Assembly (NCBI GenBank): GCA_963792365.1
Contig: CAWBVW010000001.1
Location: 359,312 to 423,311 of the forward strand
DNA length: 64,000 bases
Origin: an uncultured bacterium
GTDB taxonomy: Bacteria; Actinomycetota; Acidimicrobiia; Spongiisociales; ZC4RG35
Reading direction: 5' to 3'
Positions 26,821-57,895 of this stretch are shown here, one piece after another (the stretch's first letter is position 1; each line of letters begins with the position of its first letter). Both the position numbers and the translations under genes were made by a program. The notes under the pieces are model-generated. The model had not been told where the DNA came from. It saw nothing but the letters and a program-made list of their open reading frames with translations, and did not search any database.

Positions 26821-27861
26821 AGTGGCGAGGTCCGCGAACAGGTCGGCCAACAGGAGTTGGGGGCGGAGATTGGCCTCGAGGTCGATGACCGCCCCCATGA
26901 CGCGCTCGGCGCGTTCCACTGCGAGCCGGGGCGTCACCGTGGTGAGCGTGGCCACGGGGATGTCTCGGTTGCGCATTGGACCACCTAGCTGCACGGCCGC
27001 TGCGTCCAGATACCAGGACGCGATCAGCTCCAGCCCCGTGGAGAGCAGAGACTGGCGCGCCCGGCGGCGAGCCCGGTCAGCCTCCTCCTTGGAGAGGTCG
27101 CCGCCGACGCCCTCGAGCAACGGGTCGACCGACTCGATCATCTCGGCGGCGAGGCGGAACGCTTCCCCCGGACGGGCCGAGGCTCTCAGCGGCACCGACA
27201 ACCACGCCCTTCTGAACCCCGAGATCTCAGGGCTGGCCAGCACGGAGAAGGCCAGTCCTGGCCGACCACCGGCGAGCCCGGCGAGAACCTCGGCGTGTGT
27301 CCCATCGACGCCCCGTTCGGTGAGCGCCGCCGTGAGCACGTGGTCGGCCACTCGCCCGAAATGGACGGTACGGCAACGGCTCGCAACGGTTGACGGAAGC
27401 TGGTCCTCGAACTCGACGACGAGAATGAACACTGTGCTGACAGTCGGCTCTTCCAGCGTCTTCAGCAGGGCGTTCGCCGCCTGATCGGTCATCGAGCCCG
27501 CATCCTCGATCAAGAACACCTTGCGTGAGGCCTCGACCGGGCTCATCGAAGCCTGATGGATCGTGGCACGCGCCTGATCGACACCGAGACTCTGGCGGCC
27601 TTCGGGCTCCACCAGGATGATGTCCGGATGGGCGCCGGAGAGCACCCGACGACAGGATCGACACTCGTCCTCGTGCGCTCCGCCCGCGGGACACAGCAGC
27701 ATCGCCGCAAACCGCCTGGCAACCACGGCCTTGCCCACACCTGCCGCCCCTGTGAAGAGGTAGGCGTTTGCGGGTGCCGGAGCCTCTCTGACCAGCAACT
27801 CCAGAACGCGCTCGTGACCGACGACGTCCCCGAACAGCTTCAGCTGCGCAGACTCGGTCAT
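26812..27861 (-). CDS. holB: DNA polymerase III subunit delta-prime
   Basis: 349 aa. AAA+ clamp-loader motifs (...YLFTGAAGVGKAVVARRFAAMLLC..., the Zn module CRSCRRV, SRC-like ...TVASRCRTVHF). Confidence 0.85.
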   Translation of the reverse strand: MTESAQLKLFGDVVGHERVLELLVREAPAPANAYLFTGAAGVGKAVVARRFAAMLLCPAGGAHEDECRSCRRVLSGAHPDIILVEPEGRQSLGVDQARATIHQASMSPVEASRKVFLIEDAGSMTDQAANALLKTLEEPTVSTVFILVVEFEDQLPSTVASRCRTVHFGRVADHVLTAALTERGVDGTHAEVLAGLAGGRPGLAFSVLASPEISGFRRAWLSVPLRASARPGEAFRLAAEMIESVDPLLEGVGGDLSKEEADRARRRARQSLLSTGLELIASWYLDAAAVQLGGPMRNRDIPVATLTTVTPRLAVERAERVMGAVIDLEANLRPQLLLADLFADLATNT

Positions 27862-29858: not shown

Positions 29859-31499
29859 CTACCCGTGACTCCGACCGACGTCGGTGTTCGACGCGAACTC
29901 GACGGGAGCCGCACCATCCGGCGCCGGCAATGTGAGCACAGCTGCGGTTCCGGTGCCACGGCCCGCGCTCTCGAGCGTCAATGTCCCGCCCATAGCCTCG
30001 GCGAGCCGGCGGCTGATGACCAACCCGAGCCCGGTTCCGGTTCGCTCGCCAGAAGAAGACCGACCGGTGAAGGGTTGGAACAGCTCGCCCATCTCCTCTT
30101 TGTCGATACCTTCCCCTTCGTCTCGCACGGTCAGCACGACCTCGCCTCCCGAACATTCCGCCGTGACCAGTACCGCGGCGTCGGCGGTGAACTTGACCGC
30201 GTTCGACAACAGGTTGATCAGTATCTGGCGAACCCGCACGGCGTCTCCGAGCGCCGCGACCCCGCTCGAGACGGAGGATGTGACCTCGACCCGGCGTGCC
30301 GCGGCCTGAGGCCCGACCGAACCGAGCACTTCATTGACGATGGGTGCAAGGTCGACCCGTTGATCGGTGGCGACGGTGAGCCGGCCGGCATCAGACCGAG
30401 CAACGTCGAGCACATCCCCGATCAGTTCCAGGACGTGACGCGCGCTGTCGCGAATCGACGTTGCGAATTCGATGCGCTCGTCCGTTCCCAGCTCTGCGTC
30501 GTTCTCCATCAGGATCTCCGCATAGCCGGCGATTGCCGTCATCGGGGTTCGAAGCTCGTGACTCAGCGACGAGATGAACTCGCCTCTCGCACGGTGAGCA
30601 TCGATGACCGACCGTTCCAGCGCCGTCCGCTGCAGACATGCCACCGTGTGCGCAGCGATCGCCACCAACGCCGCGGTTCGGGAGTTGGCGGTGTCGACGG
30701 CCGATGCCGCCCCCACCACACCTCCCGTCGCATGGCCACCGACCGGAAGAGGCACAACGAGCAGATCGGCTCCGGTCGGGTCGGGTACGACCGCGGTGGA
30801 GAACCCCTCGTACCGCCCGGCGTATTCCAACACCTCGGCGACCTCCGGTGGCGAACCGGTGCCCGATTGCCTCAATGCGACGGTGATCGGTTCTGCGTCT
30901 TGCTGCGGCACGACGATCCGGCCGGCGGTCAGGCCGGCCACCCTTGCCACCAGCCTCAAGGCGTACTCGGCGACCAGCTCCGAGTCGGTGAGCGTCACCA
31001 TTGTCACGAGCGACCGGGCGACGTCTCCGCTCGGATTGACCATCGCCGACGTTCTGATCTTCCGAACCACGCGTTTGGCGAAGTGCTCGAGCGCGCCTAC
31101 CAGGTCGTCGTCTGGCGCATCTTCCAGCTCCACACTGAGCACGTGGTCGCCCACCGGGATCGCCACCTGAGCGGGCAACTCGGCCACCACGGGGACCCAG
31201 TCCCGGTCGTCGGGCCCATGCACGACCCGTTGCACTTCCCCCGTGCGGAAAGCCCGCCCGATCACGCCGAACTCGGCCACCATGCCGTCGAAGACCGTCT
31301 CGTAACCGGCTTGGGCGATCAGCCACAACCGACCTTCCCAATGCCGATACACCGAGGCCGCCAACGCCCCTCCGCTCAGCTCGCGCAACCGACTCATCGC
31401 CACTTGCGCGGCTTCTGGACCGGACTCATCGTCCAGAGCGCCTTCGACCCGCGCTATCGCCTCGGCCACAGGGGCACTTTCGGTCTTCACAGCACCCAT
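29859..31499 (-). CDS. Sensor histidine kinase with tandem GAF domains (soluble; no cognate response regulator adjacent)
   Basis: HisKA H-box SHELRTPMTAIAGYAEIL; HATPase_c N/G boxes (LINLLSNAVKF..., GTGLGLVISRRLAEAMGG). Two N-terminal GAF-like segments. Start at ATG 31499. Confidence 0.8.
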   Translation of the reverse strand: MGAVKTESAPVAEAIARVEGALDDESGPEAAQVAMSRLRELSGGALAASVYRHWEGRLWLIAQAGYETVFDGMVAEFGVIGRAFRTGEVQRVVHGPDDRDWVPVVAELPAQVAIPVGDHVLSVELEDAPDDDLVGALEHFAKRVVRKIRTSAMVNPSGDVARSLVTMVTLTDSELVAEYALRLVARVAGLTAGRIVVPQQDAEPITVALRQSGTGSPPEVAEVLEYAGRYEGFSTAVVPDPTGADLLVVPLPVGGHATGGVVGAASAVDTANSRTAALVAIAAHTVACLQRTALERSVIDAHRARGEFISSLSHELRTPMTAIAGYAEILMENDAELGTDERIEFATSIRDSARHVLELIGDVLDVARSDAGRLTVATDQRVDLAPIVNEVLGSVGPQAAARRVEVTSSVSSGVAALGDAVRVRQILINLLSNAVKFTADAAVLVTAECSGGEVVLTVRDEGEGIDKEEMGELFQPFTGRSSSGERTGTGLGLVISRRLAEAMGGTLTLESAGRGTGTAAVLTLPAPDGAAPVEFASNTDVGRSHG

Positions 31500-31537
31500 A
31501 TTGCCTTCTCGGGAGGCATTAGCCCACCTGTGCTCCC

Positions 31538-31567
31538 TTGACACCAGGTCGATCCCTGGCGTAGCTT
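31538..31567 (+). promoter_or_regulatory. Candidate sigma-70-type promoter for topA (TTGACA -35, 17-18 bp spacer, TAGCTT -10). It predicts a leaderless or near-leaderless mRNA.
   Basis: TTGACA at 31538-31543 and TAGCTT at 31562-31567 lie 9 nt before the GTG start at 31576. Pattern match only. Confidence 0.3.
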
Positions 31568-31575
31568 GCCCATCC

Positions 31576-34149
31576 GTGTCCGGCCCCCTCGTCATCGTCG
31601 AGTCCCCCACCAAGGCCAAATCCATTGGTCAGTTTCTGCGCGCCCTGGACCCCGACATAAAGGTCGAGGCGTCGATCGGCCACATCCGGGACCTGCCTGA
31701 GGGCGCCAAGGCCCTGCCCGAGCGGTACAAGAAGGAGAAGTGGGCGTATCTCGGCGTCAAGGTGGACGAGGGTTTCGAACCGGTCTACGTGATCTCGACG
31801 CGTTCCAAGTCGCAGATCAAGAAGCTGAAAGAGCTGCTGGCCGACGCCGACGAGCTCTATCTCGCGACCGACGAGGACCGCGAGGGTGAGGCGATCGCCT
31901 GGCACCTGGCCGAAGTGCTGAAGCCCAAGGTGCCGGTCAAACGGATGGTGTTCCACGAGATCACCGAGCAGGCGATCCGAGAGGCATTTGCGTCACCACG
32001 CGACATCGACGAAAACCTGGTGGATGCACAGGAGACTCGCCGGATACTCGATCGGATCGTCGGGTATGACATCTCCCCGGTGGCCTGGAAGAAAGTCCGT
32101 CCTCGTCTTTCGGTCGGTCGGGTGCAATCGGTGGCCGTTCGCATCGTGGTCGAACGTGAGCGTGAGCGAATGGCATTCCGCTCCGCGTACTACTGGGACA
32201 TCGAGGGCGAGTTCGCCACCGACGACGGCGAGTTCACGGGGTCGCTCGTGGCAGTCGACGGTGTCCGGGTCGCGGCCGGCCGCGACTTCTCTTCGCTGGG
32301 CGAGCTCACGACCTCGGATGTCGTGGCTCTCGGTCAAGCCGACGCTGAAGCGCTGGTCGGAGCACTCGATGGCGCCGACTTCAAGGTCCGGTCGACCGAG
32401 ACGAAGCCATACACACGCCGGCCATATCCGCCATTCCGCACCTCGACCCTCCAGCAGGAGTCCGGCCGCAAGCTGAAGTACTCGTCGACTCGCACCATGA
32501 GTGTCGCTCAACGCCTGTACGAGAACGGCTTCATCACCTACATGCGTACCGATTCCACGTCGCTCTCCGAGGCTGCGATCACCGCGGCCCGTGGTGAGAT
32601 CCACAAGCTGTACGGCGATGACTATCTGCCCGACAAGCCGCGCGCCTATTCCGGCAAGGCAAAGAACGCCCAGGAAGCGCACGAGGCGATCCGCCCGGCA
32701 GGAGAAGCCTGGAGGACGCCGGCTCAGGTCAGCAGGGAGCTGGGTGCGTCGAGCGACGAAGCCAGGCTGTACGACCTGATCTGGAAGCGGACCCTGGCTT
32801 CGCAGATGCCGGACGCCAAGGGAGAGTCGCTGTCCGTGAGGCTCGGAGCGATCGCCTCGGACAATCGGGACGCCGAGTTCTCGACTTCCGGGCGTGTCAT
32901 CCAGTTTCCCGGCTTCCTCAAGGTCTACGTCGAATCGATCGACGACCCCGACGCCGACACCGACGACACCGAGCGCCGACTCCCGCCACTGGCCGTGGAT
33001 GACCCTCTCGAGGTCAGGTCTCTCGAAGCATCCGGCCACGAGACGAAACCACCCCGTCGCTATACCGAGGCTTCCTTGGTGCAGAAACTGGAGGAGCTCG
33101 GAGTCGGGCGACCGTCGACGTACGCATCGATCATCGAGAAGATCCTCGACCGCCACTACGTGTGGAAGAAGAGCGGAGCGCTCGTCCCCTCATTCACCGC
33201 GTTCGCCGTCGTCGCGCTGCTCGAACAGCACTTCCCCGACCTCGTGGACTACGCCTTCACAGCACGGATGGAAGAGGACCTCGACCTCATCGCATCTGGC
33301 GAAGAGCAGCGAGTCGACTGGCTGAGCAGCTTCTACTTGGGCGAGACCGGGCTCCGACAGCGGATCGCCGACAACCTCGAGCATATCGACGCCCGCGAGA
33401 TCAACTCGATTCCGATCGGGACCGACGAACAAGGACGCGAGATCGTCGCCAGGGTCGGGCGATATGGCCCCTACCTGGAGAGGGACGAAGATCGCGCTTC
33501 GATCCCCGACGACCTCCCGCCCGATGAACTCGACGTGGCGAGGGCGACCGAGTTGATCGACGACCAGTCGAAGGGCGACAAGATCCTCGGAACCGACCCG
33601 GACTCGGGGCTGGTGGTGTTGGCGCGTACCGGCCGGTTCGGCCCCTACGTGCAGTTGGGCGAGCAGGAAGAGGGCAGCAAGGAGAAGCCGAAACGAGCGA
33701 GCCTCCTCAAAGGTATGGAACTCGACGAGTTGGGTCTCGACGGGGCCCTGAGACTGCTGTCGCTTCCTCGCCTCGTAGGAACCGACCCCGATGGCACCGA
33801 GATTCGCGCCTTCAACGGGAAGTACGGGCCCTACATCAAACGCGGGGACGACTCGAGAAGCCTCGAGTCCGAGGACCAGCTGTTCAGCGTCACCGTGGAA
33901 GAGGCGATGGTGCTGCTCGCCGAACCCCCTCGGCGACGTGGTCAGCAAGCGGCGTCCGGCCCACTGCGCGAACTGGGTGAAGACCCCGTGTCGAAGAAGC
34001 CTGTCACCGTTCGCAAGGGCCGCTACGGGCCCTACGTGACCGACGGCGACGTGAACGCATCTCTTCGCAAGGGCGACGACCCGGAGAAGATCACCCTCGA
34101 ACGCGCTGCCGAGCTGCTGGCCGACCGCCGATCCCGCCTCGGCAAATGA
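31576..34149 (+). CDS. topA: DNA topoisomerase I
   Basis: From GTG 31576 it reads (M)SGPLVIVESPTKAKSIGQFL..., the Toprim start of TopA. The 857-aa body matches type IA topoisomerase, with a long basic C-terminal tail with repeated GRYGPY motifs typical of actinobacterial TopA. Confidence 0.95.
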   Translation: MSGPLVIVESPTKAKSIGQFLRALDPDIKVEASIGHIRDLPEGAKALPERYKKEKWAYLGVKVDEGFEPVYVISTRSKSQIKKLKELLADADELYLATDEDREGEAIAWHLAEVLKPKVPVKRMVFHEITEQAIREAFASPRDIDENLVDAQETRRILDRIVGYDISPVAWKKVRPRLSVGRVQSVAVRIVVERERERMAFRSAYYWDIEGEFATDDGEFTGSLVAVDGVRVAAGRDFSSLGELTTSDVVALGQADAEALVGALDGADFKVRSTETKPYTRRPYPPFRTSTLQQESGRKLKYSSTRTMSVAQRLYENGFITYMRTDSTSLSEAAITAARGEIHKLYGDDYLPDKPRAYSGKAKNAQEAHEAIRPAGEAWRTPAQVSRELGASSDEARLYDLIWKRTLASQMPDAKGESLSVRLGAIASDNRDAEFSTSGRVIQFPGFLKVYVESIDDPDADTDDTERRLPPLAVDDPLEVRSLEASGHETKPPRRYTEASLVQKLEELGVGRPSTYASIIEKILDRHYVWKKSGALVPSFTAFAVVALLEQHFPDLVDYAFTARMEEDLDLIASGEEQRVDWLSSFYLGETGLRQRIADNLEHIDAREINSIPIGTDEQGREIVARVGRYGPYLERDEDRASIPDDLPPDELDVARATELIDDQSKGDKILGTDPDSGLVVLARTGRFGPYVQLGEQEEGSKEKPKRASLLKGMELDELGLDGALRLLSLPRLVGTDPDGTEIRAFNGKYGPYIKRGDDSRSLESEDQLFSVTVEEAMVLLAEPPRRRGQQAASGPLRELGEDPVSKKPVTVRKGRYGPYVTDGDVNASLRKGDDPEKITLERAAELLADRRSRLGK

Positions 34150-34325
34150 GCTCGGCGCCTGGGGCGCCTACGTAGAGCGTATTACGCAATACGTCGGCCA
34201 GTGGCGTCCGCTACCCGGCCAGGCATGGCTCTCCCGGTCGACGCTCAAGTTTCGACGCTGTTGGGGCCGATGCACCTCCCAGAGGTACTCGTCTCACAGA
34301 AGGTGCGCTTGACGTGTTCGGGGGA

Positions 34326-36002
34326 ATGCGATTGACCGATCGGAACCGAACCTGGAGCCGGCTGGCACCGATCGTCGCTGTCATCGGGTTGCTCCTCGCC
34401 GTGATTCCCGCCTCCACGCCGAGGGACAGCGCCATGGAGCAGGTCATCGTGCGTGCCGATTCGACGATGCTCGACATGGTCCGTCGCAATGTCGAGTCGA
34501 TCGGCGGCGTGATCGTCCGAGACCTCTCGATCATCGACGGGTTCGCTGCACAGGTGCCGGCCGGGCTCGATACGGCGTCGCTGCCGGGCGTCACCGAGGT
34601 CACGGTCGACGGTCGCATCGGGTTGTCATCGACCCGGACCGGCGGAGGCCACACCTCGATGCGGACGCTGACCGATCGCGTCCTCGACGTGGATCGGCTC
34701 TGGGCCCGTGGGATCACGGGAGCCGGCGTGGGAGTCGCTCTCATCGATACGGGCGTCACTCCCGTGGGCGGACTCGACGGAGACGGCAAGATCGTCAACG
34801 GCCCTGACCTGTCCTTCGACGCCGAATACGAGAACCTCAGATGGCTCGACATGTATGGGCACGGAACCCACCTGGCCGGCATCATCGCCGGCGAGGATCC
34901 CTCATTCTCACCGCGCAGCAGCCGCCGTAACGCGTTCGCGGGGGTCGCACCGGGGGCCCAGATCGTCAATGTCAAAGTGGCAGACGCCACGGGGACCGCC
35001 GACGTCTCTCAGGTCATCGCCGGAATCCAGTGGGTGGTGGATCACAAGGACGACGGTCCGGTCGACATCAGAGTGTTGGCACTGGCGTTCGGAACCGATG
35101 GCACACAGGCATACACACTCGATCCACTCGCCTACGCCGCCGAGGTGGCGTGGCATGAAGGCATCGTCGTGGTGGTCGCCGCCGGCAACGATGCAGCCGC
35201 ACGGCCACTGCGCAATCCGGCCACGGACCCCTATGTGATCGCAGTGGGAGCGCTGGACCCCGGCAACAGCTCGAAGGTGTCGGATGATCGGCTGTTGGCT
35301 TTCTCGAACTGCGGCACCGCAGAACGCTCCGTGGATGTCTTTGCACCGGGCAAGTCCATCGCCAGTCTCCGAGTTGGAGGCTCCTTCATCGACGATCAGT
35401 ACCGGGAGGCACGCACAGGTCGCCGGTACTTCCGAGGCACGGGAACATCACAGGCCGCGGCGGTCGTGTCTGGAGCCGCAGCATTGTTGATCGACCAACG
35501 ACCCGATCTGACTCCAGATCAGGTCAAGGAGTTGCTGACCGGATCGGCGCGCACCTTGCAGACCGCCGGCGGAACCTGCGCGGGAGCCGGATCTCTCGAC
35601 GTTCGCCGAGCGTCAGCGAGCGCCACGCCCACCATGGTGCAGGACTTCGACCGGTCTGACGGATCGGGATCGCTGGAAGCCGCTCGCGGGTCGTACCACG
35701 TGTCACACGACGGCACCATTCTCGAGGGTGAGATCGACGTCACCGGCGGCACGTGGTCCGGAGGCACCTGGTCAGGCGGCACCTGGTCCGGAGGCACCTG
35801 GTCAGGCGGCACCTGGTCCGGAGGCACCTGGTCCGGAGGCACCTGGTCCGGAGGCACCTGGTCCGGAGGCACCTGGTCCGGAGGCACCTGGTCCGGAGGC
35901 ACCTGGTCCGGAGGCACCTGGTCCGGAGGCACCTGGTCAGGCGGCACCTGGAGCGGAGGCACCTGGTCAGGGAGCACCTGGTCCGGTGCCCGATGGCGGT
36001 GA
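34326..36002 (+). CDS. Secreted S8 (subtilisin-like) serine peptidase with a C-terminal (GGTWS)n pentapeptide repeat tail
   Basis: Signal peptide MRLTDRNRTWSRLAPIVAVIGLLLAVIPASTP. Catalytic triad context D (VALIDTGV), H (HGTHLAGII), S (GTSQAAAVVSGAAALL). The last ~90 aa are about 17 tandem GGTWS units. The ORF-track start at 34314 (GTG) is an alternative. Confidence 0.85.
   Translation: MRLTDRNRTWSRLAPIVAVIGLLLAVIPASTPRDSAMEQVIVRADSTMLDMVRRNVESIGGVIVRDLSIIDGFAAQVPAGLDTASLPGVTEVTVDGRIGLSSTRTGGGHTSMRTLTDRVLDVDRLWARGITGAGVGVALIDTGVTPVGGLDGDGKIVNGPDLSFDAEYENLRWLDMYGHGTHLAGIIAGEDPSFSPRSSRRNAFAGVAPGAQIVNVKVADATGTADVSQVIAGIQWVVDHKDDGPVDIRVLALAFGTDGTQAYTLDPLAYAAEVAWHEGIVVVVAAGNDAAARPLRNPATDPYVIAVGALDPGNSSKVSDDRLLAFSNCGTAERSVDVFAPGKSIASLRVGGSFIDDQYREARTGRRYFRGTGTSQAAAVVSGAAALLIDQRPDLTPDQVKELLTGSARTLQTAGGTCAGAGSLDVRRASASATPTMVQDFDRSDGSGSLEAARGSYHVSHDGTILEGEIDVTGGTWSGGTWSGGTWSGGTWSGGTWSGGTWSGGTWSGGTWSGGTWSGGTWSGGTWSGGTWSGGTWSGGTWSGGTWSGSTWSGARWR
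35740..35990 (+). repeat. Tandem 15-bp DNA repeat (ggcacctggtccgga / ggcacctggtcaggc), ~17 copies, coding for the GGTWS repeats
   Basis: Read directly. Near-identical units with third-position variants only. Other reading frames give the artefactual PDQVP and RRHLV repeat ORFs. Confidence 0.95.
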
Positions 36003-36022
36003 GTCGAGTCTCACTGCGGAGG

Positions 36023-38506
36023 ATGACCAGCGGTAACAACCGCGTGTGGTGGCTCACGTCCGCCATCATCTTCGCGACAGCGCCGCTGGTCCTGCTCGCA
36101 GTCGATCTGCCTGCCCCCGACAGCCCGATCCGGATGCCGTTGTGGCTCTTGGCCGTCTTCTACTACGTGGCCGAGATCACCGTGGTGCACGTGCGTTTCC
36201 GGCGGGACGCCCATTCCTTCTCGATGAGCGAGTTCCCCCTGGTCATGTCGCTCTTCTTTGCATCTCCGATCACGATCATCGCTGCTCAGATGATCGGATC
36301 CGCAGCCGCGCTCGGGTTCACCAGACGGCAGCGACCGGTGAAACTCATCTTCAACCTCGCACAGCTGAGCCTGCAGACTGCTGTAATGACTTCAGTGTTC
36401 TGGGCGATCACGGGGAGCGGCGATCCCCTCGGACCTCGCGGCTGGTACGCGGTTGGGAGCGGCATCGCCTGCACCCTGGTCATATCGAACGCTCTGATCT
36501 CAGGCGCGATCGTCCTGTCGGGCGGCTCCATCAGCCGTTCCGAACGAACGACCATGTACATGCTGACGGGCGGTGCGGGTCTCATGAACGCCACCCTTGG
36601 GCTCGTCGCAGCCACGATCTTGTGGGCTCGGCCCCAGTCCTCGTGGATCGCCGCCGCTCCCCCGCTCGTGCTGTTCTTTGCATACCGGGCCTACCTGTCC
36701 CAACGGCTGGAACGTGAGCGGGTGCAAGCCCTGTACGAGGTCAGTGAGGAGCTGCATCGACTTCCGCACATCGAAGACGCGCTGGAGGCCGCCGTCGACC
36801 GCGCCCGCGTGATGTTCGATGCGGAGACCGCCGAGATCCTCCTGTACCCCGAGGGCCTCGACTCCGAGGGGATATCGACGACAGCACGAATCGACGAAGA
36901 GATCGACGTCATGGGTGTGGCTCCGCCGGCGACCGATGATGAGGAACTGGTGGAGATCGCGCGGTCGGGCACCGGGCGACTGATCTCCGACACGGGCAGG
37001 GTGGTCGGGATGATCGTTCCCATTCCCGGGACCGGTGGCGTGTTGCGGGTCACCATCCCGAGGAGCGACATCGGAGGCTTCGGCGAACGCGATCTCCAGT
37101 TGCTCAGCACTCTGGCCGGTCACGTGGGGATCTCGCTCGAGAACGGTCGCCTCGAGGATTCTCTCACCAAGCTCACCGAGCTCAAGGACCAGTTGCGGCA
37201 TCAGGCCCTGCACGACGGGCTGACCGGCCTCGCAAACCGCAGCCTCCTCCTCGACCGATTGGTCGACGCGACGTCCCTGCCTTCAGGGTCGACGGCCGTG
37301 CTCTTCCTCGACCTCGATGACTTCAAGGGTGTGAACGACGGTCATGGTCACGAGGCCGGTGACGCTCTGCTCGTCCAGGTGGCACGGCGTCTCGAGGCAT
37401 GTTGCCGGCCGACCGACACGGTGGCGAGATTGGGGGGTGACGAGTTTGCCCTGTTGGTGACCGAACTCGCCAACCCTGACCACGTTGTGACCGTCGCCCG
37501 CCGAGTGATCGAAGAGCTCAGCAAACCATTCCATGTCGCGGGCACCGCGCTCGAGATCCATGCCTCCATCGGCGTGGCGGTCATCGACCGCGGGACACCG
37601 CCAGACGAGGTCCTCAAGGCTGCCGACGAGGCCATGTATGTGGCGAAGGGCGAGGGCAAAGGAACCTACCGGGTGTACAGCCCGGGCCTGCGTTCGACAC
37701 ACAGCATGGAATTGAGCGCACTGGCCGAGCTTCGCGCTGCGATCCGAGAAGAGCGCCTCGTGCTGCACTACCAACCGATCTTCAATCTGTCGACCGGACG
37801 CATCGAAGGCGTCGAAGCCCTGGTGCGATGGGATCATCCAGAGCGCGGTCTCATCTCGCCGGACGAATTCGTCCCGTTGGCCGAGCGTCGCGGTGTCGTC
37901 GAGGAGATCGGCGACTGGGTCCTGAGGAAGGCTGCGGATGCCCTCCGAACCTGGCGGGTCGGCTTCGGTGCAGACGCCCCCTACATGTCGGTCAACTTCT
38001 CGGCGGCGGAGATCGCCGAACCCGCACTCCTCAGGACGGTGCTCGACGTGCTGGCCGTCCGCGACCTCGATCCCGCCTCCCTCCAGATCGAGATCACCGA
38101 GGGTGCGATGATGGACAGCGGGACGTCCGTGCTCGACGGGCTCCGCAGATCAGGCGTACGTGTGGCTCTCGACGACTTCGGGACCGGATACTCATCACTC
38201 GCCTACCTCGATCAGCTGCCGGTCGACACCATCAAGCTCGCCCGAGGATTCGTCGACCGCATCGGTGACCCTCGGGTCCGCACGATCATCGAGATGATGG
38301 TGGGTGTGGGCGAGACGCTGGGTTTCTCGACCATCGCCGAAGGGGTCGAGCGCCAGGATCAACTCGACACACTGCGGGCGATCGGCTGCGAGCAGGCACA
38401 GGGCTACCACCTGGCTCGACCGATGCCCGAGGCCGAGCTCATGGAGATCCTGGCAGCCCACACGGAGCCGAACGCACGGGGACATCTGCGCATCGCCACG
38501 GCGTGA
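36023..38506 (+). CDS. Membrane-anchored GAF-GGDEF-EAL signalling protein (c-di-GMP turnover)
   Basis: An N-terminal ~8-TM domain, then GAF. The GGDEF domain looks intact (...LTGLANRSLLLDRL...LFLDLDDFKGVNDGHGHEAGDALL...RLGGDEFALL). EAL domain (...LVLHYQPIFNLSTGRIEGVEALVRW..., EITEG, DDFGTGYSSLAYL). Start at ATG 36023 (alternative ATG 35993). Confidence 0.85.
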   Translation: MTSGNNRVWWLTSAIIFATAPLVLLAVDLPAPDSPIRMPLWLLAVFYYVAEITVVHVRFRRDAHSFSMSEFPLVMSLFFASPITIIAAQMIGSAAALGFTRRQRPVKLIFNLAQLSLQTAVMTSVFWAITGSGDPLGPRGWYAVGSGIACTLVISNALISGAIVLSGGSISRSERTTMYMLTGGAGLMNATLGLVAATILWARPQSSWIAAAPPLVLFFAYRAYLSQRLERERVQALYEVSEELHRLPHIEDALEAAVDRARVMFDAETAEILLYPEGLDSEGISTTARIDEEIDVMGVAPPATDDEELVEIARSGTGRLISDTGRVVGMIVPIPGTGGVLRVTIPRSDIGGFGERDLQLLSTLAGHVGISLENGRLEDSLTKLTELKDQLRHQALHDGLTGLANRSLLLDRLVDATSLPSGSTAVLFLDLDDFKGVNDGHGHEAGDALLVQVARRLEACCRPTDTVARLGGDEFALLVTELANPDHVVTVARRVIEELSKPFHVAGTALEIHASIGVAVIDRGTPPDEVLKAADEAMYVAKGEGKGTYRVYSPGLRSTHSMELSALAELRAAIREERLVLHYQPIFNLSTGRIEGVEALVRWDHPERGLISPDEFVPLAERRGVVEEIGDWVLRKAADALRTWRVGFGADAPYMSVNFSAAEIAEPALLRTVLDVLAVRDLDPASLQIEITEGAMMDSGTSVLDGLRRSGVRVALDDFGTGYSSLAYLDQLPVDTIKLARGFVDRIGDPRVRTIIEMMVGVGETLGFSTIAEGVERQDQLDTLRAIGCEQAQGYHLARPMPEAELMEILAAHTEPNARGHLRIATA

Positions 38507-47104: not shown

Positions 47105-48301
47105 ATGTCGAAGATGTATTCGTGCGTGCTGGCCTTCGTGCTCGTCGCGTGCACCACCGCCGGTGCCGCCGACGTCACCAGCTCGACCACGACCACTGCG
47201 CCGTCCACGACCACCACAACCGCACCCACCACGACCACCACCCATCCTCCGGTCGTGTCGCTGGAAGGCGGCGGTGACGCCATCACTCGATACATGAGCC
47301 GGTACTACGGCTACGCCTCAGGGCGCTCGGAGGCCGAACCGGAGCGGGTGCCTGCGGCGTTGCTCCCCGAGGCCGGCTCCCATCCGGATCTCGGAACCGT
47401 CGAAGGCGAAGTTGCGATCGCTACGTACCGGGGGACGCGAATCGCCGTGTTCAAGTCCGATCGTGATGTCATCGGCCTGGTGTACGGCGACGAAGGCTGG
47501 CGGATGGTCGGCGGACGAGCCCCGTCGATCGGGGTCCGCCGGTGGTACGGCAACGATCCGATCTTGGTGGCGGTAGTCGGATCGGATGCCCGTCCCGGAG
47601 AGGATGTGGCGGCCAGCCGGGCCGACTCGATCCACATCCTCGGAATCGACGGGAAGGGTGGCGCCGCGCTCGTGGGGATCCCGAGAGACTCGTGGGTTCC
47701 GATCCCTGGATATGGGACGTCCAAGATCAACGCCTCATTGTCGGCTGGCGGCCCCGAGATGATGATGGCGACCTTCGAAGACCTCTCGGGCCTGGAGTTG
47801 GACGGCTACGTCCTCACCGGTTTCGAAGGATTCGGGCATCTGGTCGACGACGTCCTGCTCCCATTCGAGCTCGACGTGCCGTTCGGGTTCAGCGATCGGG
47901 CGGCAAAAGCCAACTTCGCCGCGGGACCACAGTCGGTCGACGGAACACAAGCTCTGGCCTTCTCGCGCACACGGAAGGCGTTCGCAAGCGGAGATTTCCA
48001 GCGTCAGCTCAATGGAGGGCTGCTCCTCATCGCCGCGCTGGGTGGTGCCAAAGTGCGCGGACCACTTGCGTTCCCTGAGATCATCGCCGGAACGGAAGAT
48101 TGGATGCTGACGGACCTGACGCCTGGAGAGATGCTCCGATTCGCGCTCGCCGCAAATGACGTCAAACTGACCGAGATCGACAATCTCGTGCTGGAAGGAT
48201 CGAACGCCACCACGTCGGGTGGGGCGGCGATCGTGCGACTCAACAGTTCGTTCGCATCCGCCACGTTCGCGGACTTGGCCGACGGCACCCTCGACCAGTG
48301 A
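47105..48301 (+). CDS. LCP (LytR-CpsA-Psr) family cell-envelope phosphotransferase
   Basis: N-terminal TM/signal followed by a Thr-rich linker (TTTTAPSTTTTTAPTTTTT). LCP core ...ILVAVVGSDARPG...RADSIHILGID...ALVGIPRDSWV... Confidence 0.85.
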   Translation: MSKMYSCVLAFVLVACTTAGAADVTSSTTTTAPSTTTTTAPTTTTTHPPVVSLEGGGDAITRYMSRYYGYASGRSEAEPERVPAALLPEAGSHPDLGTVEGEVAIATYRGTRIAVFKSDRDVIGLVYGDEGWRMVGGRAPSIGVRRWYGNDPILVAVVGSDARPGEDVAASRADSIHILGIDGKGGAALVGIPRDSWVPIPGYGTSKINASLSAGGPEMMMATFEDLSGLELDGYVLTGFEGFGHLVDDVLLPFELDVPFGFSDRAAKANFAAGPQSVDGTQALAFSRTRKAFASGDFQRQLNGGLLLIAALGGAKVRGPLAFPEIIAGTEDWMLTDLTPGEMLRFALAANDVKLTEIDNLVLEGSNATTSGGAAIVRLNSSFASATFADLADGTLDQ

Positions 48302-48322: not shown

Positions 48323-48357
48323 AGTCCGAGGTCCGAGATCCGAGGTCCGAAGTCCGG
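48323..48357. repeat. Heptanucleotide tandem array AGTCCGA-GGTCCGA-GATCCGA-GGTCCGA-AGTCCGG (reverse complement of the TCGGACN units at 44746-44773)
   Basis: Read directly, immediately after the LCP stop codon. Confidence 0.85.
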
Positions 48358-57762: not shown

Positions 57763-57812
57763 GTACTGGGGTACTGAGAACTGAGTACAAGGTATTGAGT
57801 ACAAGGTCCTGA
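57763..57812. repeat. Degenerate GTACTGAG / TGAGTACAAGGT tandem repeats starting at the helicase stop codon
   Basis: Read directly: ...cagtactgagtactggggtactgagaactgagtacaaggtattgagtacaaggtcctgag. It is a locally AT-richer element between convergent genes. Confidence 0.8.
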
Positions 57813-57895
57813 GACCAAGCTCCGCCTTCGCCTGACTGGCGGCCGTGGGCCCCCTTGAGCTTTGGATCCATCCGTGCCGAGTACCTCGGCTCGAA

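Follow-up and report, generated by a model that had tools for sequence, protein, structure and literature searches.

Why does a secreted subtilase end in a long run of almost identical five-residue units, and is this run an accident of its DNA or a working part of the protein? The question is raised by a peptidase S8 gene in a stretch of 64,000 nucleotides (nt; the window) from an uncultured bacterium of the class Acidimicrobiia, which a first-pass annotation of the sequence had described as a recently expanded locus prone to changes in copy number. This work shows that the tryptophan (Trp) tail of this protease is an old, family-wide module and not a local oddity, that its peptide unit is maintained by purifying selection, and that protease and downstream gene form a conserved two-gene cassette. 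The cassette, in which a protease is paired with a membrane sensor, and the selection signature of the tail are the main value of the locus.

The Trp tail across the family

By far the strongest repeat of the window was found by Tandem Repeats Finder at 35743-35986, with a period of 15 bp, 16.3 copies, 90% matches and a score of 397. In the frame of the protease the array opens at G478 (nt 35745). The gene and its repeated end are as follows.

34314..36002, + strand: S8 subtilase gene with Trp-pentapeptide tail, 562 amino acids (AA) from the GTG at 34314 (open reading frame (ORF) list, PF00082 match)
35745..35984, + strand: sixteen in-frame 15-bp units, 15 GGTWS and one GSTWS (sequence, Tandem Repeats Finder)
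35985..36002, + strand: degenerate final unit GARWR (35985-35999) and the TGA stop codon (36000-36002), overlapping the start of the next gene (sequence)

The first-pass annotation had counted about 17 GGTWS units encoded by near-perfect 15-bp repeats, which is confirmed as 15 GGTWS, one GSTWS and GARWR. Units 1-15 differ only synonymously, and the same 15-mer is found in nine units, eight of which are consecutive (35812-35931, 120 bp of perfect 15-mers). No other run of Trp at a period of five is present in the six frames of the window. The repeat also creates long spurious ORFs in other frames of both strands at 35519-36069 (PEAPG, RRHLV, QVPPD and RCLRT runs), and it extends the ORF of the downstream gene 5' to 35753 (35753..38506), an extension that is a by-product of the repeat.

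A tail of the form (G-x-[ST]-W-[ST/N])n ends all of the 120 homologs among the matches listed, down to 47% identity, and nearly all of 80 loci fetched from a scan of one genome per species, in which 579 relatives were found. The fetched loci include members of Acidimicrobiia, Thermoleophilia, Frankiaceae, Euzebya, Geodermatophilaceae and Micromonosporaceae, with Blastococcus, Geodermatophilus, Actinoplanes, Dactylosporangium, Paractinoplanes and Planosporangium as cultured carrier genera, and others come from metagenome-assembled genomes labelled Dormibacterota, Chloroflexota and a few other groups. The annotation had considered that the tail might be missing from orthologs and be an artefact of assembly; it is present in every listed homolog, and since hundreds of independent assemblies, among them cultured genomes, carry the tail, an artefact is rejected. 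Three public assemblies (loci L015, L050 and L059) have runs of N exactly inside the Trp-pentapeptide repeat, which indicates that short-read assemblies break or are scaffolded at this place, so that copy numbers in such records are not trustworthy.

The geometry of the tail is strict. In 62 tails, the spacing from one Trp to the next is exactly five in 92.7% of cases and a multiple of five in 97.7%. Counted over the longest uninterrupted chain, the number of units has a median of 20 and is 17-23 in most proteins, and this narrow range does not bear out, as an account of the family, the variable length that had been proposed for the tail. The residue x is usually uniform inside one protein, and between proteins it is G, S, N, A, Q, T, V, K, R, M, L or H; units are heterogeneous in some lineages, for example in Actinoplanes, in Dactylosporangium and at locus L022. 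In most relatives the first four units carry a position-specific conserved pattern, WDG..WSG..WSGG.WNG.

The peptide units are much better conserved than the DNA that encodes them. The median DNA identity between units of an array is 71% in the family (79 arrays), and single arrays illustrate this divergence: L003 has 14 GSTWS among 18 units, with 15 distinct DNA sequences, L006 has 12 GASWS, with 13 units in 11 distinct DNA sequences, and L078 also has 12 GASWS, its eight core units showing a proportion of synonymous differences (pS) of 0.63 and of non-synonymous differences (pN) of 0. The serines of the tails are encoded by both TCN and AGY codons, and since switches between these two sets inflate a codon-based pN/pS across units, this ratio was replaced by a comparison of amino-acid with codon identity. 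Amino-acid identity at the x position of core units is 58% inside an array and 10% from one array to another, and unit pairs with identical amino acids have a codon identity of only 45-67%. Like peptide units on diverged DNA units imply that the units are old and that purifying selection has held them alike, also at the position x, which varies between lineages. A low-complexity repeat that is so strongly selected as a peptide is a warning against taking every perfect DNA repeat as recent and neutral.

The near-identical DNA units noted in the first-pass annotation are real, with a mean pairwise unit identity of 93% in the window, the third highest of the 79 arrays, but they are peculiar to this Acidimicrobiia clade. 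Only L002, which is labelled Acidimicrobiia, and L012 are higher, and L001 has 90%; all four arrays are of the GGTWS type. The claim of a recent expansion therefore fits the DNA of this clade, and does not fit the family, in which unit identity is low and codons are mostly different. Near-identity at the DNA level reflects a clade-specific state that arose by recent homogenisation, and is not the reason why the module exists. The ortholog at L001, 91% identical, has an array that differs by about one unit (one more). In the middle of this array (L001:7480-7505) the sequence GGTW-RRPS-GGTWS looks like a loss of 2 nt that further losses, one unit on, have compensated (6 nt net), and this scar could be either a real mutation or an indel error of long reads. 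An exact-match scan of metagenomes for the junction that precedes the repeat gave chance matches only and no conspecific alleles. The sequence itself shows that a change in the number of 15-bp units keeps the frame, so that such a change never causes a frameshift and cannot act as an on/off switch.

A conserved two-gene cassette

The most informative feature of the locus, which was missed in the first-pass annotation, is its operon with a membrane sensor. When all ORFs of 81 loci plus the window were clustered, only two gene families were common to more than nine loci, the S8 gene and the partner gene downstream of it. Searched by themselves, the N-terminal 330 residues of the partner have a homolog in 71 of the 81 loci. 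Of 70 loci that were measured, the window among them, 69 have the partner directly 3' of the S8 gene and in the same orientation, the exception being L062, where it is on the opposite strand; the distance from the S8 stop codon to the first transmembrane (TM) segment of the partner has a median of 83 nt and is below 250 nt in 69 of the 70. L059 was left out of this measurement, its S8 ORF being broken by the run of N. Ten loci have no partner match: three (L036, L060 and L077) are truncated where the contig stops, two (L015 and L050) have their runs of N within the repeat, and the other five are weighed below. The 91%-identical ortholog shows the same topA / S8 / GGDEF-EAL order as the window. 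In the window the partner is composed as follows.

35993..38506, + strand: partner gene, 837 AA, polytopic membrane sensor with GGDEF-EAL (ORF, Pfam)
36044..36697, + strand: TM domain with about 8 segments, residues ~18-235 (hydrophobic stretches)
36740..37147, + strand: GAF-like region, residues ~250-385 (weak GAF_2 match, E=0.04, in the window protein)
37205..37660, + strand: GGDEF domain, residues 405-556, motif intact at 481 (Pfam, 145.3 bits)
37727..38422, + strand: EAL domain, residues 579-810, motif intact at 608 (Pfam, 229.7 bits)

The ATG at 35993, which overlaps the protease ORF by 10 nt, is most likely the real start of the partner. Judged from its domains and motifs, the partner is a bifunctional GGDEF-EAL protein of cyclic di-GMP (c-di-GMP) turnover. 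Its TM domain has no match in Pfam or NCBIfam, and a search made with this domain gave 5 matches. Conserved in it (72 sequences) are the motifs PWW, F..aE..vvH...rR, GLff..P, RRQ...KLaFN and ayRaY. Hydrophobic stretches and the positive-inside rule, assessed by eye, give a topology in which the loops predicted to face outward are short (~38-49, ~140-149 and ~211-216, about 6-12 residues), and the best-conserved motifs (E61, H66, RR, RRQ...KLaFN) lie toward the cytoplasmic side.

The output of the partner is exchangeable. The ten scanned relatives that lack GGDEF-EAL in the partner all have HisKA-HATPase_c behind the TM module, and nine of these ten histidine-kinase-type partners show a clear GAF or GAF_2 match (E 1e-8 to 1e-16). 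At L082 (2394-7896), in a metagenome-assembled genome, a 430-AA copy made of the TM domain only comes after the S8 gene, and a separate GAF-GGDEF-EAL gene comes next. A TM-GAF module that keeps its neighbour and swaps its outputs looks like the input domain of a sensor, and the histidine-kinase variants argue for outside-in signalling in this cassette. No response regulator is found directly beside the histidine-kinase-type partners of L009, L013, L014, L016, L025, L026, L045, L047, L056 and L076; these partners look like orphan kinases, and an OmpR-like ORF occurs at L025 only, some 1.2 kb further downstream. Tail and sensor covary (partial Mantel test, partial r 0.26, p=5e-4), more strongly for cytoplasm-facing than for outward-facing TM columns. 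We take this signal to be one of phylogenetic resolution rather than of contact coevolution.

What the tail might do

The tail is the last part of a protein that runs from a signal peptide through a putative I9-like propeptide, a catalytic domain and a conserved linker to about 17 units G-x-[ST]-W-[ST]. The parts upstream of the array are the following.

34326..34418, + strand: signal peptide, with a basic n-region, the hydrophobic LAPIVAVIGLLLAVIPA, then S-T-P (by sequence reading; approximate boundaries)
34434..34607, + strand: putative I9-like N-terminal propeptide, residues ~41-98 (AlphaFold2 model, Pfam matches of relatives, Foldseek)
34719..35561, + strand: S8 catalytic domain, residues 136-416 (Pfam, alignment)
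34746-34748, 34860-34862, 35187-35189 and 35448-35450, + strand: D145, H183, oxyanion N292 and S379 (alignment)
35631..35744, + strand: conserved linker from catalytic domain to tail, DGSGSLEAARGSYHV...L.GE.D..G (alignment)

The GTG at 34314 has an AAGGTG 8 nt upstream; an alternative in-frame start, the ATG at 34326 (MRLTDRNR...) from which the first-pass annotation had counted, gives a protein of 558 AA, and the ortholog P0001 (91% identity) begins there. The N-termini of relatives are typical Sec-type leaders. In the AlphaFold2 model of the window protein, made from an alignment of 83 sequences and with a mean predicted local distance difference test score (pLDDT) of 82, residues 41-98 form a beta-alpha-beta-beta-beta element with a pLDDT above 90. 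The window protein has no match to Pfam I9, and the relatives P0114 (28.4 vs a threshold of 21.2) and P0013 match Inhibitor_I9; the top Foldseek matches are the pro-forms of Tk-SP and subtilisin E. Residues 136-416 match Peptidase_S8 (PF00082) at 133.8 bits (cut-off 21.8), and D145 (IDTG), H183 (GHGTH), N292 (AGN) and S379 (GTSQ) are invariant in the 83-sequence alignment, the triad being in the order Asp-His-Ser. With these residues intact, this member of family S8 should be active, and the description of the protein as a complete secreted S8 peptidase is borne out. In the linker, G452, R458 and G459 are invariant in the same alignment, and G467, L470, G472, E473 and D475 nearly so; this region (residues 440-485) is predicted to be ordered (pLDDT 87-95), unlike the tail.

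We favour, with a probability of about 0.4, a reading in which the mature enzyme is retained at the envelope by its Trp tail and so stays close to the sensor; as far as the sequence can tell, surface retention, which the annotation had raised as a possibility, is the best-supported function. Once the signal peptide is removed and the propeptide processed, nothing N-terminal could hold the enzyme, so that the tail would be the only part able to retain it at the cell. The protein ends ...GSTWSGARWR, without a C-terminal hydrophobic or TM segment. The first-pass annotation had stated that the tail is neither LPXTG nor SLH, and the protein indeed has no LP.TG motif and no SLH, LysM or CW_binding match in Pfam. 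A flexible tail made up largely of Gly, Ser and Thr, with Trp at every fifth position (S 28%, G 22%, W 20%, T 12%), might stick to the membrane interface, to the glycan of the wall, or to both, and a tail of about 100 residues would, if extended, be able to reach across a Gram-positive wall. For the 85-residue tail, the summed Wimley-White interfacial free energy is calculated as -24.9 kcal/mol (-0.29 per residue, compared with +0.22 for the rest of the mature protein), and the sum is negative for 119 of 119 family tails, including those with Lys or Arg at x. Held in this way beside the sensor, the protease could act on it through small cleavage products, or through the state of the tail, which a sensor almost devoid of external domain would read and convert into c-di-GMP turnover or, in relatives, into phosphotransfer.

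Several points weigh against retention. The free energies are calculations on a scale and not measurements, and both the retention and the direction of signalling are what we infer. A sticky tether does not explain why x is kept uniform by purifying selection nor why the period of five is strict. If unfolded, the tail should be cut very readily by a subtilase, since every fifth position offers a large hydrophobic residue, and it must therefore either be protected or be meant for cutting. Finally, L004, L040, L048, L053 and L070 are real exceptions to the cassette, with a tailed S8 gene and no adjoining sensor.

A first rival reading is that of a folded tail. The tail could form a beta-helix akin to Rfr or Qnr, or another solenoid of period five, with about five coils of four units, and serve as a rigid spacer or a binding domain. 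We consider this unlikely, though it survives better than the explanations that follow. A strict period maintained by selection, a unit number near 20, that is five coils of 20 residues, and a homogeneity that would suit stacked ladders of residues speak for such a fold. The tail resembles the pentapeptide-repeat proteins (PF00805) in its five-residue period and its small/polar/hydrophobic/polar/Gly pattern, A-S-W-S-G can be laid onto A-[DN]-[LF]-[ST]-G, and some relatives give weak matches. The annotation had set the tail apart from the A[DN]LXX repeat, and this holds for the tail of the window, which is unmatched, but is to be nuanced for relatives of the GASWS and GATWS types, which cross the whole-sequence thresholds of PF00805 or PF13576: P0060, a (GASWS)n protein, scores 25.7 bits against 20.2 for Pentapeptide over the whole protein, with no single stretch passing alone, and P0101 scores 27.2 against a whole-protein threshold of 27 for Pentapeptide_3. 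The window tail has no Pfam match at E up to 10, no NCBIfam model and no match to a solved structure, the best PDB match of linker and tail being QnrB1 at a non-significant E=0.24. Searches of the accessible literature with the motif strings and for Trp-rich pentapeptide repeats on subtilases returned nothing relevant, in keeping with the statement that the tail is not a described module.

The structure prediction that the annotation had proposed was made with AlphaFold2, and two runs gave neither a confident fold of the tail nor a pentapeptide-repeat helix: pLDDT is 24-32 for residues 497-562 of the window protein, of which the rest is above 90, and 24-38 for the tail of P0060, although the latter passes the Pfam threshold. 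Such a failure is not proof of disorder. The composition of the unit is a further difficulty for the solenoid. The centre of the unit is always Trp, and with this residue pointing inward the residue two before it, which occupies the small and supposedly buried position of pentapeptide-repeat proteins, is the variable x (G, A or S, but also R, K, N, Q, M, L or V). It is because x is so often Arg, Lys, Gln or Met that an Rfr-type helix is ranked here as a rival and not as the lead. Four Trp per coil would also be bulkier than the Leu/Phe core of known members. The members of this group that have been studied, such as Qnr and MfpA, are cytoplasmic DNA mimics and not tails of secreted proteases.

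A different use of an accessible tail is that it is meant to be cut. The tail would then be a putative self-processed array, cut by the fused subtilase in cis or in trans so as to yield a pentapeptide (S-G-x-T-W, for instance, if cleavage occurs after each Trp), and the adjoining polytopic receptor would convert the peptide into a c-di-GMP or histidine-kinase signal, in an autocrine or quorum-type circuit. We regard this as quite unlikely. The units are kept identical in a protein while x differs by lineage (58% vs 10%, as given above), which resembles the diversification of pheromone systems. Trp is the only large hydrophobic residue of the unit and hence the only plausible P1, with the variable x at P3, and in subtilisin-substrate complexes the P3 side chain faces solvent. 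AlphaFold2 models the tail as unfolded and accessible, and a receptor-like partner with short external loops is next in the operon. Two genomes carry tandem tailed S8 paralogs: at L008 (4922-8619) two copies with 57% identity in the catalytic region are both of the GNSWS type, and at L004 (3013-8746), where no sensor gene adjoins, three copies that are 51-70% identical are all of the GSTWS type. That diverged paralogs share one unit type is suggestive, in two genomes only.

Precedents exist for the parts of such a circuit, namely the yeast alpha-factor repeats cut by the S8 protease Kex2, the Phr pentapeptides of Bacillus released by subtilisin, Epr and Vpr, and the gene order of agrBDCA. The likeness to these systems, which is one of analogy, lies in the identical tandem short units, the S8 protease, the five-residue unit and the polytopic receptor with small loops next door; the difference is that protease and repeats are here one polypeptide, and that the receptor is of the GAF and GGDEF-EAL type and not an HPK10-type kinase. 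We know of no fusion of a protease with a pheromone. Other observations do not fit a signal array: the heterogeneous units of some lineages (Actinoplanes, Dactylosporangium, L022), the position-specific pattern of the first four units, which suggests a structural role, the narrow number of units, which is left unexplained, and the covariation of tail type with cytoplasm-facing rather than outward-facing TM columns, which is the opposite of what contact between ligand and receptor would give. The full version of this proposal, a previously unrecognised self-contained circuit with about 16 identical peptides per molecule, specificity given by x and an 8-TM/GAF receptor, widespread in Actinomycetota, Chloroflexota and Dormibacterota, is in our view less likely still.

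The weakest explanation is that of a recently expanded, slippage-prone locus in which changes in copy number adjust how long a stalk or retention module is; it has for it the unit identity of 90-93% in the window, L001, L002 and L012, the 120 bp of perfect 15-mers, the extra unit and RRPS scar of the 91%-identical ortholog and the three assemblies that break inside the repeat, but we hold it to be very unlikely for a family in which peptide units are conserved on diverged DNA, the number of units is narrow across very distant lineages, the 15-bp unit never shifts the frame and the metagenome junction scan found no conspecific alleles.

Related systems and surrounding sequence

The closest solved relative of the protease is Tk-SP of Thermococcus kodakarensis (PDB 3afg; E=2e-29 by sequence, E=8e-26 by Foldseek), and the two proteins share a catalytic domain, a C-terminal extension and, as predicted for the window protein, a signal peptide and a propeptide. 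The extension of Tk-SP is a folded beta-jelly-roll domain, whereas that of the window protein is a Trp-pentapeptide array without predicted fold or database family. The best NCBIfam match of the catalytic domain is to the mycosins (TIGR03921, E=2e-40), which are also actinobacterial. This assignment was rejected, as the protein scores 138.9 where the cut-off is 278.75, lacks a TM anchor at its C-terminus, and has topA and the GGDEF-EAL gene, not ESX genes, as neighbours. The retention proposed here recalls the choline-binding CW_binding_1, GW, SLH and LysM modules, which are C-terminal aromatic tandem repeats on secreted enzymes; those units have 20-80 residues and are folded, none is of five residues, and none has a Pfam match in this protein.

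For the cassette as a whole, the nearest parallel is LapG/LapD of Pseudomonas fluorescens, in which an extracytoplasmic protease is paired with an inner-membrane GGDEF-EAL protein and is controlled by c-di-GMP from the inside out. The parallel is one of logic only: LapG is a cysteine protease of another family and the domains of LapD are degenerate and bind c-di-GMP, whereas the protease here is of family S8, GGDEF and EAL are intact, and histidine-kinase variants exist. Identification of the partner as LapD was rejected, its motifs being intact and its score against the NCBIfam LapD model being 130.7 for a cut-off of 1020. The direction of signalling may be reversed with respect to LapG/LapD.

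Development in actinomycetes is under the control of c-di-GMP, and little is known of the inputs to which the membrane-bound enzymes respond (PMC6205966); a census of c-di-GMP enzymes in Streptomyces contains membrane-bound GGDEF-EAL proteins of unknown input and lists no protease partner (PMC6205966). With an extracellular protease as its dedicated partner, one such input would become concretely accessible. Searches of the accessible literature for pairs of S8 and GGDEF-EAL proteins returned nothing relevant, and while subtilases and GGDEF-EAL sensors are each familiar, their combination appears to be undescribed in searchable sources. The pair is conserved across at least three phyla, and as its carriers include the cultivable genera Blastococcus, Geodermatophilus, Actinoplanes and Dactylosporangium, the cassette is directly testable.

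Wider searches with the tail reached another kind of Trp repeat. A profile of synthetic tails found nothing in a large protein index, in which only two candidates shared short words and repetitive words were possibly unusable. The tail used as a phmmer query against 1.84 billion representatives gave 2861 matches, of which the top ones are mostly unrelated proteins with another Trp-pentapeptide register, G-[TIV]-W-x-[DNG]. This set (P0126-P0274, for example P0128, P0167 and P0127) is very large, apparently undescribed, and rich in Lys, Glu and Asn. Over the repeats, neither the ten of its proteins scanned against Pfam nor the ten scanned against PHROGs gave a match, and a PDB search with P0167 was likewise negative. 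In P0128 as many as 68 Trp units follow one another, and P0127 combines 93 Trp units with GPS and 7tm_2 domains, and so resembles a eukaryotic adhesion G-protein-coupled receptor.

Just upstream of the protease, a soluble histidine kinase without TM segments (29859-31625, - strand) is divergent from topA (31501-34149, + strand). Homologous kinases occupy this upstream place, on the minus strand, at L001, which also has a divergent topA, and at L002. The kinase of the window was rejected as a relative of the partner, since it clusters with the histidine-kinase-type partners through the kinase domain only and has no similar TM domain. Tandem Repeats Finder also reports five other short tandem repeats in the window, at 26789-26821, 32940-32980, 47184-47241, 48324-48356 and 57780-57813, with units of 7, 21, 24, 7 and 14 bp, respectively, in 2-5 copies, all of them far weaker than the 15-bp array.

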